Shown one piece after another: positions 3,803-21,169 of a stretch of DNA of 23,895 nt. Made by a program: the position numbers and the translations under genes. Origin of the DNA: a virus (taxonomy: Duplodnaviria; Heunggongvirae; Uroviricota; Caudoviricetes); IMG/VR virus record IMGVR_UViG_2667527698_000003; one strand, given 5' to 3'. Position 1 is the first letter of the stretch, and every line of letters begins with the position of its first letter. The notes under the pieces are model-generated. The model was not told the DNA's origin. It saw nothing but the letters and a program-made list of their open reading frames with translations, and ran no database searches.

Positions 3803-4275
3803 ACCTCAATCTCTCTGACCGTTCCGCCTGCCTCTTTGAATTTTGCAATCAGGCTGTCAGCCTTATGCTCGAACTGACCATAACCAGCGCCAGGCAGTGA
3901 AGCCCAGATATTGCTGCAACGGTCGATAGCCTGACGAATATCACCGCGATCAATCATCGGTAAAGCGCCACGCTCTTTAATCTGTTGCAGTGCCACAGCG
4001 TCCTGGCTTTTCGGAGAGAAGTCTTTCAGGCCAAGCTGCTTACGGTAGGCATCCCACCAACGGGAAAGAAGCTGGTAGCGTCCGGCGGCTGTTGATTTGA
4101 GTTTCGGATTTAGCGTGACAAGTTTGCGAGGGTGATCAGAGTAATCAGTGAATAGCTCTCCGCCAACAATGACGTCATAACCATGATTTCTGGTTTTTTG
4201 ACGTCCGTTATCAGTTCCCTCTGACCACGCCAGCATATCGAGGAACGCCTTACGTTGATTATTGATTTCCACCAT
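3799..4275 (-). CDS. R: Endolysin R (lambda-type lytic transglycosylase)
   Basis: 158 aa, [35 protein letters not shown]... near-identical to remembered lambda R. Confidence 0.9.
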
Positions 4276-4582
4276 CTTCTACTCCGGCTTTTTTAGCAGC
4301 GAAGCGTTTGATAAGCGAACCAATCGAGTCAGTACCGATGTAGCCGATAAACACGCTCGTTATATAAGCGAGATTGCTACTTAGTCCGGCGAAGTCGAGA
4401 AGGTCACGAATGAACCAGGCGATAATGGCGCACATCGTTGCGTCGATTACTGTTTTTGTAAACGCACCGCCATTATATCTGCCGCGAAGGTACGCCATTG
4501 CAAACGCAAGGATTGCCCCGATGCCTTGTTCCTTTGCCGCGAGAATGGCGGCTAACAGGTCATTTTTTTCTGGCATCTTCAT
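4259..4582 (-). CDS. S: Holin/antiholin S (dual-start MKM motif)
   Basis: 107 aa, [34 protein letters not shown]... lambda S-like. Confidence 0.9.
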
Positions 4583-4824: not shown

Positions 4825-4900
4825 TGGTGCTGGTTAACGGACTTGAACCGCTACCCATTCGCTTACAAGGCGACTGCTCTACCATTGGAGCTAAACCAGC
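4825..4900 (-). tRNA. Phage tRNA, anticodon UGU (Thr) by manual folding
   Basis: 76-nt cloverleaf on minus strand: 7-bp acceptor GCTGGTT/AACCAGC, D-arm GCTC..GAGC, anticodon loop CTTGTAA, T-loop TTCAAGT, 3' CCA. Confidence 0.6.
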
Positions 4901-4905
4901 ATGTT

Positions 4906-4980
4906 TGGCGGGACAGCGTGGACTCGAACCACGATAAGAAGGTTAACAGCCTTCCGTAATGACCTTTATACGACTGACCC
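4906..4980 (-). tRNA. Phage tRNA, anticodon GUU (Asn) by manual folding
   Basis: 75-nt cloverleaf: anticodon stem GAAGG/CCTTC, loop CTGTTAA, T-arm CGTGG-TTCGAGT-CCACG, 3' CCA; one T-T mismatch in acceptor stem. Confidence 0.6.
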
Positions 4981-5030: not shown

Positions 5031-5066
5031 CCTCTAATTATGGCTAAATGGCTAATTGCATGTCAA
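5031..5066 (-). promoter_or_regulatory. Late promoter pR'-like (sigma70), -35 inside Q 3' end
   Basis: Minus strand TTGACA (5061..5066) - 18 nt - CATAAT (5037..5042), straddling the Q stop codon. Confidence 0.55.
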
Positions 5067-5562
5067 GGCTTTTAACGGCAACATGCTTAACTTTCTCAAC
5101 ACGTTTACGCATTTTGAAAGCATTTTGCATTGGTTGGTACAAAACAAATAACGACGCTTTCAGGATGTCGTCAATTTCATTTCTACAGGTTGCCAGTGAA
5201 GGTTTTCTCCATCCCTCACCACCACGCCCACACATCTTGCGTGGCTTTGCAGTCGCGTGATAGTAGGATGCAATTGCTCGCTTAGATGAACCATGAGCGT
5301 AGTAGCTGAGGAGGATGCCAAAGGCTTTCTTGTCAATGTACATGACGGAATCGACGACCTGAGAAATCAACATTCCATCATCATCATTACACATTGGCCT
5401 TGTCATAACTCTTCCCGGCTCTACGCTCTCCATGAACTTCGCTATTACGCTGCTCATGCGCTTTTCCAGGCGACCTGAGTAAACCCATGCACCCCACAGT
5501 TCAAGCCAGCCATTCAGCCAATCGTGCTGTTCTTTGGTGAGGTTTAGTTCTCTTATGCTCAT
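5044..5562 (-). CDS. Q: Late antiterminator Q (QuuD/phage 82-type)
   Basis: 172 aa; motifs ELWGAW and RPMCNDDDGM resemble DLP12 QuuD family; located upstream of pR'/lysis. Confidence 0.65.
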   Translation of the reverse strand: MSIRELNLTKEQHDWLNGWLELWGAWVYSGRLEKRMSSVIAKFMESVEPGRVMTRPMCNDDDGMLISQVVDSVMYIDKKAFGILLSYYAHGSSKRAIASYYHATAKPRKMCGRGGEGWRKPSLATCRNEIDDILKASLFVLYQPMQNAFKMRKRVEKVKHVAVKSLDMQLAI

Positions 5563-11420: not shown

Positions 11421-12071
11421 ATGAATACACAACTGATGGGTGAGCGTATTCGCGCTCGCAGAAAAGAACTCAAGATTAGGCAGGCTGCCCTTGGCAAGAT
11501 GGTTGGCGTGTCTAATGTTGCTATTTCCCAATGGGAGCGATCTGAAACTGAGCCCAATGGCGAAAACCTATTGGCCTTAGCCAAGGCTTTGCAGTGCTCC
11601 CCTGATTACCTGTTGAAAGGAGAGGATAGTCTTTCAAACATTGCCTATCACAGCAGGCATGATCCAAGAGGTTCGTATCCTCTAATTAGTTGGGTAAGCG
11701 CAGGATGTTGGATGGAAGCTGTAGAGCCATATCATAGGCGTGCAATAGATAACTGGTACGACACAACGGTAGATTGTTCTGAAGACTCTTTTTGGCTCGA
11801 CGTTAAAGGCGATTCAATGACTGCCCCGGCAGGACTGAGTATTCCTGAGGGGATGATTATTCTCGTCGACCCAGAAGTCGAACCACGTAATGGAAAGTTG
11901 GTAGTCGCCAAACTTGAAGGAGAAAACGAGGCGACATTCAAAAAGTTAGTTATTGATGCCGGTAGAAAATTCCTGAAACCACTCAATCCACAATACCCAA
12001 TGATTGAAATCAATGGGAACTGTAAAATCATTGGCGTTGTCGTTGATGCCAAGCTAGCAAACCTTCCTTAA
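11421..12071 (+). CDS. c2: C2 prophage repressor (HTH + S24 LexA-like autopeptidase)
   Basis: 216 aa; N-terminal HTH, C-terminal ...GDSM...K... S24 motifs; recalled as P22 C2. Confidence 0.9.
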   Translation: MNTQLMGERIRARRKELKIRQAALGKMVGVSNVAISQWERSETEPNGENLLALAKALQCSPDYLLKGEDSLSNIAYHSRHDPRGSYPLISWVSAGCWMEAVEPYHRRAIDNWYDTTVDCSEDSFWLDVKGDSMTAPAGLSIPEGMIILVDPEVEPRNGKLVVAKLEGENEATFKKLVIDAGRKFLKPLNPQYPMIEINGNCKIIGVVVDAKLANLP

Positions 12072-12385: not shown

Positions 12386-12691
12386 ATGGTAACCATTGTC
12401 TGGAAAGAATCCAAAGGTACGGCAAAAAGCCGCTACAAAGCTCGCAGAGCAGAACTTATTGCCGAGCGACGCAGTAATGAAGCACTGGCGCGAAAAATTG
12501 CGCTAAAGCTCTCTGGTTGCGTCAGAGCAGACAAAGCAGCATCGCTAGGATGCCTTTGCTGCAAGAAGAAAGAAGAAGTCGTTCGAAAAAATAGAAGTAT
12601 TTATTACAAAGATTCAAACCCATTAGGAAACAAAATACATGCAGTCCAAAAAATAAAATTGTACAGTAAACTACCGTACGGTGCTTATTGA
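12386..12691 (+). CDS. N-like antiterminator (arginine-rich motif) with divergent AT-rich 3' end
   Basis: MVTIVWKESKGTAKSRYKARRAELIAERRSNEALARK...; GGAG 6 nt upstream; C-terminal ~27 codons AT-rich. Confidence 0.65.
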   Translation: MVTIVWKESKGTAKSRYKARRAELIAERRSNEALARKIALKLSGCVRADKAASLGCLCCKKKEEVVRKNRSIYYKDSNPLGNKIHAVQKIKLYSKLPYGAY

Positions 12692-15539: not shown

Positions 15540-15640
15540 TGGCGACCGCGAAGGAATGCGGGTATGCCTTAATTTGTCCCGAGTCGAAGTATTAAATCAG
15601 CGTTATTTTCTTGGGCCGTGTCCATTCTGAGATCAAACAT

Positions 15641-16246
15641 ATGAGCAAAGAATTTTATGCAAGGCTGGCAGCCATTCAGGAGAATCTGAACGCGCCAAAG
15701 AATCAGTACAACTCATTCGGTAAATATAAATACAGAAGCTGCGAAGACATTCTTGAAGGCGTTAAGCCGTTACTGAATGGCCTGTTTTTATCAATCAGCG
15801 ATGAAGTTGTGTTGATTGGTGATCGGTATTACGTGAAAGCAACGGCAACTATTACTGATGGCGAAAACAGTCATACAGCAACCGCTCTTGCACGAGAGGA
15901 AGAAAGCAAGAAAGGAATGGATTCTGCACAAGTTACGGGAGCTACAAGCTCTTATGCACGCAAGTATTGCCTCAATGGTTTGTTCGGCATTGATGATGCG
16001 AAAGATGCAGATACCGACGAGCATAAACATCAGCAGAACGCAGCAGCAAAGCAATCAAAACCATCACCTACACCTGAACAGGTTCTAAAAGCATTCACTG
16101 ACGCAGCATTGCAGAAAAACACCGTGGAAGAGCTTAAACAGGCGTTCGCCAAAGCGTGGAAGATGCTCGAAGGCACACCGGAGCAGCACAAAGCGCAGGA
16201 CGTTTACAACATCAGACGAGACGAATTAGAAGGAGCGGCTGCTTAA
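15641..16246 (+). CDS. erf: Erf single-strand annealing recombinase
   Basis: MSKEFYARLAAIQENLNAPKNQYNSFGKYKYRSCEDILEGVKPLL... recalled as P22 Erf-like. Confidence 0.85.
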   Translation: MSKEFYARLAAIQENLNAPKNQYNSFGKYKYRSCEDILEGVKPLLNGLFLSISDEVVLIGDRYYVKATATITDGENSHTATALAREEESKKGMDSAQVTGATSSYARKYCLNGLFGIDDAKDADTDEHKHQQNAAAKQSKPSPTPEQVLKAFTDAALQKNTVEELKQAFAKAWKMLEGTPEQHKAQDVYNIRRDELEGAAA

Positions 16247-16652: not shown

Positions 16653-16946
16653 ATGCCAGCGCCTCTGTATGGTGCGGATGCCCCGCGCCGCTGTTCCGGC
16701 AATTCCGTATCGGAGGTGCTGGATAAATTCAGAAAAAACTACGATCGGATAATGTCGCTACCGCAGGAAACGAAAGAGGAAAAGGAATTTCGCCACTGTA
16801 TATGGCTTGCAGAGAAAGAAGAACGCGAGCGAATTTACCAGACATCAATCCGACCATTCCGCAAAGCCACATATACCCACTTCCCTGAAATTGACCCGCG
16901 CCTGCGTAATTACCGCTCACGCTATGGCGCTATCAGTAATGACTGA
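16653..16946 (+). CDS. Abc2-like (anti-RecBCD) candidate, 97 aa
   Basis: Position after erf and size match P22 abc2; sequence identification from memory only. Confidence 0.45.
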
Positions 16947-17121
16947 GGAATTTACCATGAGAGGACTTGCATACAACCCCGGCATTCTTCCGGCAGAAAT
17001 GATTATTCGCCAACGCGTAAAGCCAATGCCATCGAGAGAGGAATTGCTTAAGAGAAATTCTTTTCCATCAGTGAATCAAAACAAGTATCTGAATGCGATG
17101 TTGCGGAGTGGGAAGAAATGA
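16939..17121 (+). CDS. Hypothetical protein (60 aa)
   Basis: ORF 16807..17121, start taken at ATG overlapping previous stop. Confidence 0.4.
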
Positions 17122-17600
17122 AACAAATGACACTAATTGAGATGGATGGTTTTCTGAAAGGTAAATGCATCCCACGAGATTTAAAGGTTAACGAAACAAA
17201 CGCTGAATATCTTGTGCGTAAGTTCGGTGAACTTGAATCAAAACTAGAAACGGCGTTGCGGGAGTGTCGTTCTGCTGGAATCACGATTGATAACCTTGAG
17301 GCTAAATGCGCGAAGATGGCTGCTGAAAATACCTCACTTAAGCAATCTGAGAAGGAATTTAATGACTTTTGTCGTGAGGAGTTTAGCGAATGGGAAGATG
17401 ATGTTACTGAAACTCCAGCCACCGATGCTTTCCTGGCTGAAGTACGGGCGCAGGGGGTAGAGATGTACGCAGATAACCTCGACAACGGAGCAGACGACGC
17501 AGAACGAGGTGGTTTTGATTATGCCGTTAAGTTTCTACGCAGTGAAGCATCTAGTGTACGTTTGTTCGCCGACCAGCTTCGCAAAGGAGGCAACCAGTGA
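17118..17600 (+). CDS. Hypothetical protein (160 aa), predicted coiled coil
   Basis: ORF track; ATGA overlap with upstream gene. Confidence 0.55.
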
Positions 17601-18493
17601 GCAAGATTGACTATCAGGCACTGCGTGAGGCGGCAGAAAAAGCAACGTGTGGTGAGTGGTCGCTCGAATATGGAGAGGGCCAATTTGATGGTGATGATGC
17701 GCTAATTCATCGTGACGTTGTTGGATATCTTCCCATTTGCAGAATTGAAGGAGCGCATCCTGAAAGCGGTTTCGATGAAGATTTCCAAATAGAACAGCAG
17801 GCCAATGCTGAATTCATCGCCGCAGCCAATCCAGCTACCGTCTTGGCGCTGCTGGATGAGCTGGAAAGAAACCAGCAATACATCAAACGCCGTGACCAGG
17901 AGAACGAGGAGATTGCGTTAACGGTAGGGAAGCTGCGTGTTGAGCTGGAAGGCAAAGACAAGCTGATTGCAGAGCTTGGAAAACAATGCGCCGAATGGGA
18001 GCGAAAAGCATTAAGCAACTTTGAAGAGTGTGCTGCGATGGCTGAACGTATCGAAGAGTTGCAGACAAAATCTGCACCAGATTCGTTTGGCATCATCGGT
18101 GAAAATATTCGAACACAGGATAATCGAATAACGTCAGACCCTATGTTTTGTGTGTATCAAAAGCGCGAAATCGTTGTTGATGCTGATTATGACTATGACC
18201 GGATTGTCTGGGTTGATGAAGATGGCAATGAAGCCAATAAACGCCAAAGTCGTCGTCTCGAACTACTTCACGAAAACTTTCGAGAGCCACCAGAAAAATG
18301 GCGGCGCGTTGCTGTGAAAGATATTGATGAATTCGTTACCTGCTGTTTCACCGAACAGGGTTGTAAAGACTACCTGGCAGCCAATGGTCACAATCTTCGC
18401 TTGCCATTTATATATGTAAATGGCGGTTTCAGGAACGCTGAATATATCGGCATAAGAAACTGGCTTGCTGGCATTCGCATCAAAGGAGAGTGA
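17597..18493 (+). CDS. Ead/Ea22-like protein
   Basis: N-terminus [21 protein letters not shown]...FIAAANPATVLALLDELE typical of the Ead/Ea22 family of lambdoid prophages. Confidence 0.7.
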   Translation: MSKIDYQALREAAEKATCGEWSLEYGEGQFDGDDALIHRDVVGYLPICRIEGAHPESGFDEDFQIEQQANAEFIAAANPATVLALLDELERNQQYIKRRDQENEEIALTVGKLRVELEGKDKLIAELGKQCAEWERKALSNFEECAAMAERIEELQTKSAPDSFGIIGENIRTQDNRITSDPMFCVYQKREIVVDADYDYDRIVWVDEDGNEANKRQSRRLELLHENFREPPEKWRRVAVKDIDEFVTCCFTEQGCKDYLAANGHNLRLPFIYVNGGFRNAEYIGIRNWLAGIRIKGE

Positions 18494-18695
18494 GATGAGC
18501 AGGAATACGGGTTTGTAAAAGATAACGCTTGTGAAAATGCTGAATTTCGCGTCGTCTTCACAGCGATGCCAGAGTCTGTAGTGTCAGATGATGACCGTAC
18601 TCAAACATCGGGTTGAGTATTATCTTACTGTTTCTTTACATAAACATTGCTGATACCGTTTAGCTGAAACGACATACATTGCAAGGAGTTTATAA

Positions 18696-18977
18696 ATGAG
18701 TATCAATGAGTTAGAGTCTGAGCAAAAAGATTGGGCGTTATCAATGTTGTGCAGATCCGGTGTCTTGTCTCCATGCAGACATCACGAAGGTGTTTATGTA
18801 GATGAAGGTATAGATATAGAGTCGGCATACAAATATTCCATGAAGGTTTATAAGTCTAATGAAGACAAATCCCCATTCTGCAATGTGCGAGAAATGACTG
18901 ATACCGTGCAAAATTATTATCATGAGTACGGTGGAAACGATACTTGCCCTCTCTGTACAAAACATATAGATGATTAA
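18696..18977 (+). CDS. Hypothetical Cys/His-containing protein (93 aa), AT-rich accessory gene
   Basis: ORF track; AAGGAG RBS; CxxC at C-terminus (CPLC); own terminator. Confidence 0.55.
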   Translation: MSINELESEQKDWALSMLCRSGVLSPCRHHEGVYVDEGIDIESAYKYSMKVYKSNEDKSPFCNVREMTDTVQNYYHEYGGNDTCPLCTKHIDD

Positions 18978-18997
18978 ACCAAATATTACATAACAAT

Positions 18998-19025
18998 CCT
19001 CGCATTCGCGGGGATTTCTTTTATC
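18998..19025 (+). terminator. Rho-independent terminator
   Basis: cctcgc-attc-gcgggg hairpin + T-rich tail. Confidence 0.55.
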
Positions 19026-19065
19026 TGAACTCGCTACGGAGGGTTTTGTTTTATGGAGATGATAA

Positions 19066-19233
19066 ATGCACTTCCGAGTTACAGGTGAATGGAATGGAGA
19101 ACCATTCAACAGAGTTATCGAAGCCGAGAACATCAGCGACTGCTATGACCACTGGATGCTGTGGGCGCAGATAGCACATGCAGACGTAACCAATATTCGA
19201 ATTGAAGAACTGAAAGAACACCAAGCCGCCTGA
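19066..19233 (+). CDS. Small ORF (55 aa)
   Basis: MHFRVTGEWNGEPFNRVIEAENISDCYDHWMLWAQIAHADVTNIRIEELKEHQAA; GGAG 8 nt upstream; stop lies inside terminator hairpin. Confidence 0.4.
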   Translation: MHFRVTGEWNGEPFNRVIEAENISDCYDHWMLWAQIAHADVTNIRIEELKEHQAA

Positions 19234-19247
19234 TGGCGGTTTTTTAT
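19223..19247 (+). terminator. Rho-independent terminator
   Basis: gccgcc-tgat-ggcggt hairpin + TTTTTTATT. Confidence 0.7.
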
Positions 19248-19259
19248 TGGAGACAAGAA

Positions 19260-19604
19260 ATGTCAGATTTGGCTATGAAGGTTTTGAAATGGCAATCGAC
19301 TGGCGATGTCGGCATCAGTAGCGCAACTCTTGCCTCAATCGCATGTGGACTGAAAAAGAATATCTATGGTCATCACTTCGGCGCTCCACATGACGCAGCC
19401 GATTTCAGACGATGCGTTGCACTTGTTGAGCAGATCCCAGAAATCAGAGATTCATTCGACAAGGTTGCAAAGCGCGTTCCGGCATTCAAAGGCATCCTCA
19501 ACGAATGGGATTCCCTCGTTGATCTGTTGAAGTCTGAAATGAAGATACACGGAAACAAAGCACCAGAGACTTACAGAAGAATTAGCGAGTTACGCAAGGA
19601 CTAA
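19260..19604 (+). CDS. Hypothetical protein (114 aa)
   Basis: ORF 19233..19604, start taken at ATG 19260 with GGAG upstream. Confidence 0.5.
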   Translation: MSDLAMKVLKWQSTGDVGISSATLASIACGLKKNIYGHHFGAPHDAADFRRCVALVEQIPEIRDSFDKVAKRVPAFKGILNEWDSLVDLLKSEMKIHGNKAPETYRRISELRKD

Positions 19605-19694
19605 CCACAGCCTCATACTCGATGAGGCCTGTTCATTGCTCAATGATATCCAGACCTACCGCAATAATACCAATCCAATAAATGGAGATTCCAG

Positions 19695-20042
19695 GTGGAA
19701 GAAGAAATCTTCACTCGTGAAGAGGCAGCGTCGTATCTGAAGGTAGACAAAGGCACTATCACGCAGTGGATACGAAGTGGACGACTTCAGGCCGCAAAGA
19801 TAAATCCAGATAAACCTAAAAGCCCATATCGCATTTGCAAGTCAGACTGCATTGCGGCGCTTAAGTCTGTGAGACACAATAGCGCGGTGAATGCGGTTGA
19901 TGTGCAGGAGGTTAAAGCATGTCAATCAAACTACGCGGTGGCACGTGGCACTGCGATTTCGTCGCGCCAGATGGATCAAGAGTTAGACGCTCTCTTGAAA
20001 CATCGGACAAAAGGCAAGCGCAAGAACTTCACGATCGTCTGA
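19695..20042 (+). CDS. xis: Excisionase (P22-type, long form)
   Basis: GTG start with GGAG upstream; HTH FTREEAASYLKVDKGTITQWIRSGRL; overlaps int 5' end. Confidence 0.65.
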   Translation: MEEEIFTREEAASYLKVDKGTITQWIRSGRLQAAKINPDKPKSPYRICKSDCIAALKSVRHNSAVNAVDVQEVKACQSNYAVARGTAISSRQMDQELDALLKHRTKGKRKNFTIV

Positions 20043-21079
20043 AAGCAGAAGCGTGGAGAGTAAAAAATCTCGGGGAATCACCGAAAAAGCTATTCAAGGA
20101 AGCCTGCATACGGTGGCTGCGTGAGAAATCGGATAAGAAGTCCATTGATGATGACAAGAGCATTATATCGTTCTGGATGTTGCACTTCAGAGAAGCCATT
20201 CTCTCTGACATAACAACAGAAAAAATAATGGAGGCGGTAGACGGGATGGAAAACCGCCGCCATCGCCTGAACTGGGAGATGAGCCGGGACAGGTGTTTGC
20301 GACTTGGCAATCCGGTGCCGGAGTATAAACCAAAGCTTGCAAGCAAAGGAACGAAGACGAGGCATCTGGCAATACTTCGCGCCATTCTCAATATGGCTGT
20401 TGAATGGGGATGGCTTGACAGGGCACCCAAAATATCAACACCACGCGTTAAGAATGGACGCATCAGATGGCTTACAGAGGAGGAATCGAAGCGCCTGTTT
20501 GCAGAAATTGCTCCTCACTTCTTCCCTGTGGTCATGTTTGCAATCACGACAGGCCTTCGCCGTTCCAACGTTACAGACCTTGAGTGGTCACAGGTCGATC
20601 TGGATAAGAAAATGGCATGGATGCACCCTGATGAAACAAAAGCTGGCAATGCGATCGGAGTTCCTCTTAACGAAACCGCATGCCAGATATTAAGAAAACA
20701 GCAGGGGCTCCATAAGAGATGGGTATTTGTCCACACCAAACCTGCCTACCGAAGCGACGGAACAAAAACAGCAGCGGTAAGGAAGATGAGAACCGACAGC
20801 AACAAGGCATGGAAGGGAGCGTTAAAGCGGGCAGGCATTAGCAACTTCCGCTTCCATGATCTGAGGCATACCTGGGCAAGCTGGCTGGTTCAGTCCGGTG
20901 TCTCTCTTCTTGCACTTAAAGAGATGGGAGGATGGGAAACTCTCGAAATGGTTCAAAGATACGCCCACCTTTCAGCCGGGCATCTCACCGAGCACGCAAG
21001 CAAAATCGATGCGATTATAAGTCGCAATGGCACAAATACGGCACAAGAGGAGAACGTGGTTTACTTAAATGCGAGGTAA
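19919..21079 (+). CDS. int: Tyrosine integrase (P22 Int-like)
   Basis: 386 aa; AGGAGG RBS; C-terminal catalytic region HDLRHTWASW...RYAHL; adjacent to tRNA. Confidence 0.9.
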   Translation: MSIKLRGGTWHCDFVAPDGSRVRRSLETSDKRQAQELHDRLKAEAWRVKNLGESPKKLFKEACIRWLREKSDKKSIDDDKSIISFWMLHFREAILSDITTEKIMEAVDGMENRRHRLNWEMSRDRCLRLGNPVPEYKPKLASKGTKTRHLAILRAILNMAVEWGWLDRAPKISTPRVKNGRIRWLTEEESKRLFAEIAPHFFPVVMFAITTGLRRSNVTDLEWSQVDLDKKMAWMHPDETKAGNAIGVPLNETACQILRKQQGLHKRWVFVHTKPAYRSDGTKTAAVRKMRTDSNKAWKGALKRAGISNFRFHDLRHTWASWLVQSGVSLLALKEMGGWETLEMVQRYAHLSAGHLTEHASKIDAIISRNGTNTAQEENVVYLNAR

Positions 21080-21093
21080 CTTATTGATTTAAA

Positions 21094-21169
21094 TGGTGCC
21101 GATAATAGGAGTCGAACCTACGACCTTCGCATTACGAATGCGCTGCTCTACCAACTGAGCTATATCGGC
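21094..21169 (-). tRNA. thrW: tRNA-Thr (anticodon CGU), host thrW; prophage attachment site overlaps its 3' end
   Basis: Minus-strand 76 nt GCCGATATAGCTCAGTTGGTAGAGCAGCGCATTCGTAATGCGAAGGTCGTAGGTTCGACTCCTATTATCGGCACCA, 15 nt from int stop. Confidence 0.9.

Follow-up and report, generated by a model that had tools for sequence, protein, structure and literature searches.

The 93-amino-acid Cys/His-containing protein encoded in a 23,895-nt stretch of phage DNA, the whole of which is here termed the window, is almost certainly Ea8.5 of bacteriophage lambda, the product of gene ea8.5. The overall reading, which is held to be very probably correct, is that this lambda gene is carried on a cassette of a mosaic prophage and would encode a zinc-stabilised regulatory accessory protein. 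The first-pass annotation, made from the nucleotide sequence without database searches, recognised no family for the protein. That statement fails, as the protein displays 100% identity to lambda Ea8.5 and scores 164 bits against a Pfam family whose curated threshold is 27 bits. The profile and structure search that the annotation proposed clearly matched the protein to a characterised family, the outcome it had itself named as contrary to its claim. Publications already describe the gene and its protein family, how relatives fold, and even the predicted terminator. As a discovery, ea8.5 in this location matters little, and it poses a modest question in lambda biology.

Identity and family of Ea8.5

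At the amino acid level, all 93 residues are the same as those of lambda NP_040611 (BLASTP, 93/93). At the DNA level, positions 18508..19030 are 99% identical to lambda 29321..29843 over 523 nt, and also to lambda derivatives, e.g. DE3, HK630, O276 and 4W. The Pfam family PF20735 (Lambda_ea8_5), titled 'Bacteriophage lambda ea8.5-related domain', is the sole Pfam match of the protein and is aligned over profile positions 1–90 of 90 (E = 1.1e-48, 164.3 bits). The match to phrog_6325 is also end to end (1–93 of 93, E = 8.3e-54). A search of NCBIfam gave no matches for Ea8.5 or for the products of orf55 and ORF123, the two open reading frames that follow it.

Although Ea8.5 was described as unique to lambda (PMC8614690), the identical protein is found, here and in other loci, in mosaic prophages that are not lambda and that have other recombination and integration modules. 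Of 5,426 complete E. coli genomes, 247 contain ea8.5 DNA. When 1.84 billion cluster representatives were searched exhaustively with phmmer, 73 proteins related to Ea8.5 were detected at E <= 0.001; the distant relatives make up at least 73 clusters, defined at 50% identity. A word-indexed homologue search with Ea8.5 returned near-identical sequences and fragments only. Among deposited phages, tblastn detected only phages of the lambda type, all 100% identical, and a C-terminal remnant in phage mEp234, with no diverse homologues. Phage mEp234 retains just the final 17–18 codons of ea8.5 together with the terminator (matching 18920..19030), and this fragment looks like the remnant of a recombination joint within the gene.

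Several database records carry ea8.5 under other names. GenBank MW057783.1, termed 'Campylobacter phage CJLB-4' (48,361 bp), looks like phage lambda itself because it has an identical ea8.5 at essentially lambda coordinates. Lambda contamination may likewise account for the partial Ea8.5 records assigned to Ancylomarina, Acinetobacter and Salmonella. A 130-aa open reading frame antisense to ea8.5 (18741..19133, − strand) was dismissed as a by-product of AT-rich sequence, since no evidence supports it.

Putative metal site and fold

The Cys and His residues of Ea8.5 are C19, C27, H29, H30, C62, H76, C84, C87 and H90, and these include a C-terminal CPLC. An alignment of 47 full-length members of the family, which are 27–61% identical to the query, has M1, C27, H30, C84 and C87 as its only invariant columns; A14 and A44 are nearly invariant. 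C27, H30, C84 and C87 are the predicted zinc ligands, and the site would be of the form CxxH...CxxC. The remaining residues, C19, H29, C62, H76 and H90, are not conserved among the 47 relatives and are probably incidental. Thus, the four invariant residues define the putative zinc site and set it apart from incidental Cys and His residues.

The first-pass annotation pointed to a C-terminal CxxC plus scattered Cys and His residues and suggested a small metal-binding module. The residues are present, the CxxC included, and the scattered ones beyond the four ligands are not conserved. The guess of a metal-binding module was probably right, because C27, H30, C84 and C87 are invariant across the 47 relatives and because the homologues in PDB entries 2M7A and 2M7B are published as hybrids that join a zinc finger to a homeodomain.

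The alignment of Ea8.5 with 2m7a is full length (E = 2.5e-18) and that with 2m7b is weaker yet significant (E = 9.5e-4). These homologues belong to the same Pfam family, and the CxxH and CxxC motifs align with those of 2m7a, which is only about 41% identical to the protein found here. The PDB matches do not include a structure of Ea8.5 from lambda itself. Both entries are solved NMR structures and their fold is described as a hybrid of the homeodomain/zinc-finger type (Kwan et al. 2013; cited in PMC8614690, PMC4195576 and PMC3824215). Zinc binding is also reported for Ea8.5 homologues (Kwan et al. 2013, as cited in PMC8614690 and PMC4195576). By full-length homology to 2m7a/2m7b, Ea8.5 would have the same hybrid fold, with a homeodomain-like helical core and a zinc finger. 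Perhaps one zinc ion, held by C27 and H30 (CxxH) and by C84 and C87 (CxxC), ties the C-terminal tail to this helical core. A single-sequence AlphaFold2 model of Ea8.5 has a pLDDT of 41 and is unusable.

The ea8.5 cassette and its mosaic prophage

The window represents a mosaic lambdoid prophage, with thrW as the site of integration. The phages that match it best (phiv205-1, HK022, IME10 and HK75) have a coverage of only 37–44% each. The features of the region are listed in Table 1.

Table 1. Positions of genes and signals around ea8.5 in the window
Feature	Positions	Strand	Basis or remark
cI-type repressor	11421..12071	+	Family search
DUF2528 gene	Between cI and Erf	+	Family search
Erf recombination gene	15611..16246	+	
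Abc2 anti-RecBCD	16653..16946	+	
Ea22-like ORF 1	17118..17600	+	phrog_614
Ea22-like ORF 2	17597..18493	+	Ead_Ea22 N-terminal part fused to phrog_3205 C-terminal part
Left cassette edge: last 27 nt of Ea22-like gene plus 202-nt AT-rich non-coding gap	18467..18695	+	Start of similarity
Shine-Dalgarno AAGGAG	18683..18688	+	7 nt 5′ of ATG, read directly
ea8.5 coding region (ATG start, 93 aa and stop)	18696..18977	+	ORF list; BLASTP, Pfam, phrog and PDB matches
Intrinsic terminator-like hairpin and T-run after ea8.5 (predicted t3-lambda)	18995..19026	+	Scan, fold, PMC4195576 Table 4
orf55 (lambda lambdap35), second cassette gene	19066..19233	+	phrog_676, E = 5.5e-40; no Pfam match
Terminator-like hairpin after orf55 (t5-lambda), right cassette edge	19223..19249 (hairpin 19223..19242)	+	Scan; PMC4195576 Table 4
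ORF123 (123 aa)	19233..19604	+	phrog_1229; without lambda counterpart
Integration module: HTH_17 excisionase (phrog_2907), tyrosine integrase ending at 21079, thrW	19695..21169		
tRNA-Thr(CGT) gene thrW	21094..21169		proA beyond

Read along the + strand, the genes are cI, Erf, Abc2, Ea22-like, ea8.5, orf55, ORF123, xis-like and int, followed by thrW. The order Ea22-like, ea8.5, orf55, (xis), int is common to lambda and eight further prophage loci. As expected of the early-left exo-xis region read from pL, ea8.5 is on the pL strand between the recombination genes and xis/int, and directly follows a gene of the Ead/Ea22 family (PF13935, E = 1.2e-32). The first-pass annotation likewise put the gene after an Ea22-like gene in the early-left accessory region, and the place between an Ea22-like gene and xis/int is the canonical slot. 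The recombination module is P22-like, with Erf and Abc2, and is not lambda Red. The two adjacent Ea22-like open reading frames illustrate the mosaicism of ea22.

The prophage end and attachment site are assigned to thrW because int is followed by the tRNA-Thr(CGT) gene and then by proA. The longest int open reading frame overlaps xis by 124 nt, and for this reason the true start of int probably lies further downstream. ORF123 has no Pfam, NCBIfam or PADLOC match. Its listed ATG falls within the orf55 terminator hairpin, and thus translation probably begins at another ATG, at 19261, which comes after a GGAG. In one of the other prophage loci, termed L007, a 78%-identical DNA homologue of ORF123 is found directly 3′ of ea8.5. 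Elsewhere in the window, the phage carries a pair of tRNA genes, for Thr(TGT) and Asn(GTT), at 4825..4980 on the − strand between the open reading frames 5044..5562 and 4259..4582, which by position are probably the Q antiterminator gene and the first lysis gene.

Similarity to lambda is limited to 18467..19249, plus a 102-nt patch within the Ea22-like gene. By this similarity, the segment is a lambda-type cassette of ∼780 bp that carries ea8.5 and orf55. The left joint is constant at 18467–18470 in lambda and in eight other prophage loci that have an identical Ea8.5. The right joint in those eight loci is at 19249, or else at 19027 or 19068, just past the ea8.5 terminator. In loci L006 and L007 the similarity stops just after the predicted t3, at 19027/19068, and t3 is thus also a mosaic joint. 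In the eight other loci and in L003, the cassette is joined to Red, Rad52/SSB or RecT/Gp157 recombination modules and to integrases of the lambda type or the P4 type. The constant joints and the varied recombination and integration partners show that ea8.5, the gap and the terminator form a separable mosaic module. It was also observed that orf55 accompanies ea8.5 and is followed by a terminator-like hairpin of its own.

Lambda ea8.5 (lambda 29374..29655) has the same 93-aa protein, gap, ribosome binding site, terminator, downstream orf55 and slot after an Ea22-family gene. The host prophage, however, is not lambda, as the homology is confined to the cassette. Erf and Abc2 are found in place of Red, and the cassette is followed by the extra 123-aa open reading frame and then by an excisionase of another kind (HTH_17) and a thrW-site integrase. 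The gap differs from that of lambda by a single substitution and by an 11-nt indel at 18497–18507, at the left joint. There is one substitution in the ea8.5 open reading frame (at 18923, with the protein unchanged), five across 18508..19030, and eight in orf55. The pattern of substitutions in ea8.5 and orf55 is consistent with purifying selection.

The open reading frame is present as first described, with an ATG start, 93 codons for amino acids and a strong AAGGAG ribosome binding site. The region is also an AT-rich island, as claimed: the G+C content is 38.3% in the ea8.5 open reading frame and 38.8% over 18500..19030, compared with 47.6% for the window. The latter value is in the lowest 2% of same-sized segments and is not the minimum, which is 36.3% near 12551. 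The terminator that the first-pass annotation assigned to 18998..19025 is found by the scan within 3 nt of those limits. Its hairpin (18995..19016) has a 9-bp stem with five G-C pairs and a 4-nt loop, and is followed by TCTTTTATCT (terminator scan). The calculated stability is −13.1 kcal/mol (z = −3.65), and none of 200 shuffled sequences was as stable.

The hairpin 3′ of ea8.5 has already been named t3-lambda, and the next two t4 and t5 (PMC4195576, Table 4). Within 18300..19700, five terminator-like sites are seen compared with 0.8 expected from shuffles. Relative to lambda, t3 has changes in the loop (19005) and in the T-tract (19018). The t4 hairpin, within 19027..19060, has a C-to-A change at 19040, by which the lambda sequence GCGGG becomes GAGGG, and this may weaken t4.

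Promoter signals were also looked for in the 202-nt gap (18494..18695). A scan for consensus sigma-70 promoters found none at threshold in the gap, and the best matches of a looser scan were 8/12. The annotation of the gene as self-contained thus stands for the ribosome binding site, the terminator and the separable mosaic module, and does not extend to a promoter that the consensus scan can recognise in this gap. A structured leader or riboswitch upstream of ea8.5 was considered and dropped, because the fold of the 207-nt leader is no better than that of shuffled sequences (z = +0.51). An Rfam search of the whole window matched three tRNAs only, with no family in the gap.

Proposed role and alternative readings

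Published data bear on when ea8.5 is expressed and on what it does. The exo-xis region, ea8.5 included, is transcribed from pL, and ea8.5 mRNA is seen after both infection and induction, at a level lower than that of genes lying upstream of t2, a predicted terminator (PMC4195576). Plasmid-borne ea8.5 is reported to repress paQ markedly and to affect pI slightly, whereas pE does not respond; the paQ and pI effects are described as coming from multicopy overexpression and as weaker than those of the whole exo-xis region (Los 2008, as cited in PMC7093339). A frameshift in plasmid-borne ea8.5 is associated with delayed phage development after induction by H2O2 (PMC4195576). In yeast two-hybrid assays the partners of Ea8.5 were itself, Int, Q, Ren, Stf, Tfa and the host protein MinE (PMC8614690), and the authors flagged the Ea8.5 bait as promiscuous.

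The best-supported mechanism is that Ea8.5 would be made early after infection or induction, within the N-antiterminated pL transcript, and would act as a small regulatory binder, presumably of a protein or a nucleic acid. It would dampen the CII-dependent promoters paQ and, weakly, pI, and in this way may nudge the lysis-lysogeny decision, presumably toward lysis. The proposal is tentative because it draws on overexpression data. The promoter effects of multicopy ea8.5, being below those of the whole exo-xis region, argue against it, as do the many two-hybrid partners of a promiscuous bait and the finding that the plasmid frameshift led only to a delay after H2O2 induction.

A different reading, which appears doubtful, is that ea8.5 is a moron-like unit. 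The gap would have a weak or non-consensus promoter of its own, and Ea8.5 made from the repressed prophage would serve the lysogen, e.g. by superinfection exclusion or host modulation, rather than the lytic programme. The low G+C content, the strong ribosome binding site and the private terminator are in keeping with such a unit, as is the observation that the 200-nt gap always travels with ea8.5 and that the cassette edges are constant across prophage backbones. In addition, ribosome profiling reportedly lists ea8.5 with the genes that uninduced lambda lysogens express (Liu et al. 2013, as cited in PMC4195576), and it has been suggested that regulation of ea22 and ea8.5 is possibly independent of the pL genes (PMC4195576). 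The promoter scans of the gap speak against this reading, with no sigma-70 consensus at threshold and 8/12 from the looser scan. So does the level of ea8.5 mRNA, which tracks the location of the gene with respect to t2, the upstream terminator, as for read-through from pL (PMC4195576). Matches to PADLOC defence models (E <= 0.01) are also absent for Ea8.5, as they are for orf55 and ORF123. The fullest form of the proposal is rather unlikely, namely that the unit 18467..19027 would be a moron that acts autonomously: from a non-consensus promoter it would be expressed in the repressed prophage, and it would be shuffled among unrelated lambdoid backbones for the benefit of the lysogen. If true, the benefit might be phage exclusion, or a retuning of host transcription via the zinc/homeodomain-like module.

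It is improbable that Ea8.5 is a host cell-cycle effector that binds a factor of host division or replication, MinE for example, and adds to the exo-xis block of host DNA replication and to cell-cycle synchronisation. MinE came up in the two-hybrid assays, and cell-cycle and replication effects are reported to be tied to the exo-xis region (Sergueev 2002; Kourilsky and Knapp 1974, as cited in PMC8614690 and PMC3824215). The evidence for the MinE contact is, however, from two-hybrid assays alone, with a bait described as promiscuous, and the literature consulted does not attribute the cell-cycle phenotype to ea8.5. Stx phages that show the exo-xis effects are without ea8.5 (PMC7093339).

That ea8.5 is a chance open reading frame or a decayed, functionless remnant has practically no probability and is in effect refuted by the pattern of conservation, since nothing apart from its laboratory dispensability (ea8.5 was non-essential in a CRISPRi screen; PMC10695390) is in favour, while the protein is identical to that of lambda despite substitutions in flanking non-coding DNA and eight in orf55, its relatives make up dozens of sequence clusters with four invariant ligand residues, and homologues fold and have solved structures.

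With respect to the preferred reading of Ea8.5 as a zinc-stabilised regulatory protein, lambda Orf73 and the TraR-DksA type C4 zinc-finger proteins are described as likewise small zinc-binding accessory proteins of the early-left region, proposed to act on transcription (PMC9239242). Ea8.5 differs from these in having no sequence relationship to them and in its predicted ligands, which are CxxH...CxxC and not two CxxC motifs. A zf-dskA_traR gene is present as a separate gene in neighbouring loci.
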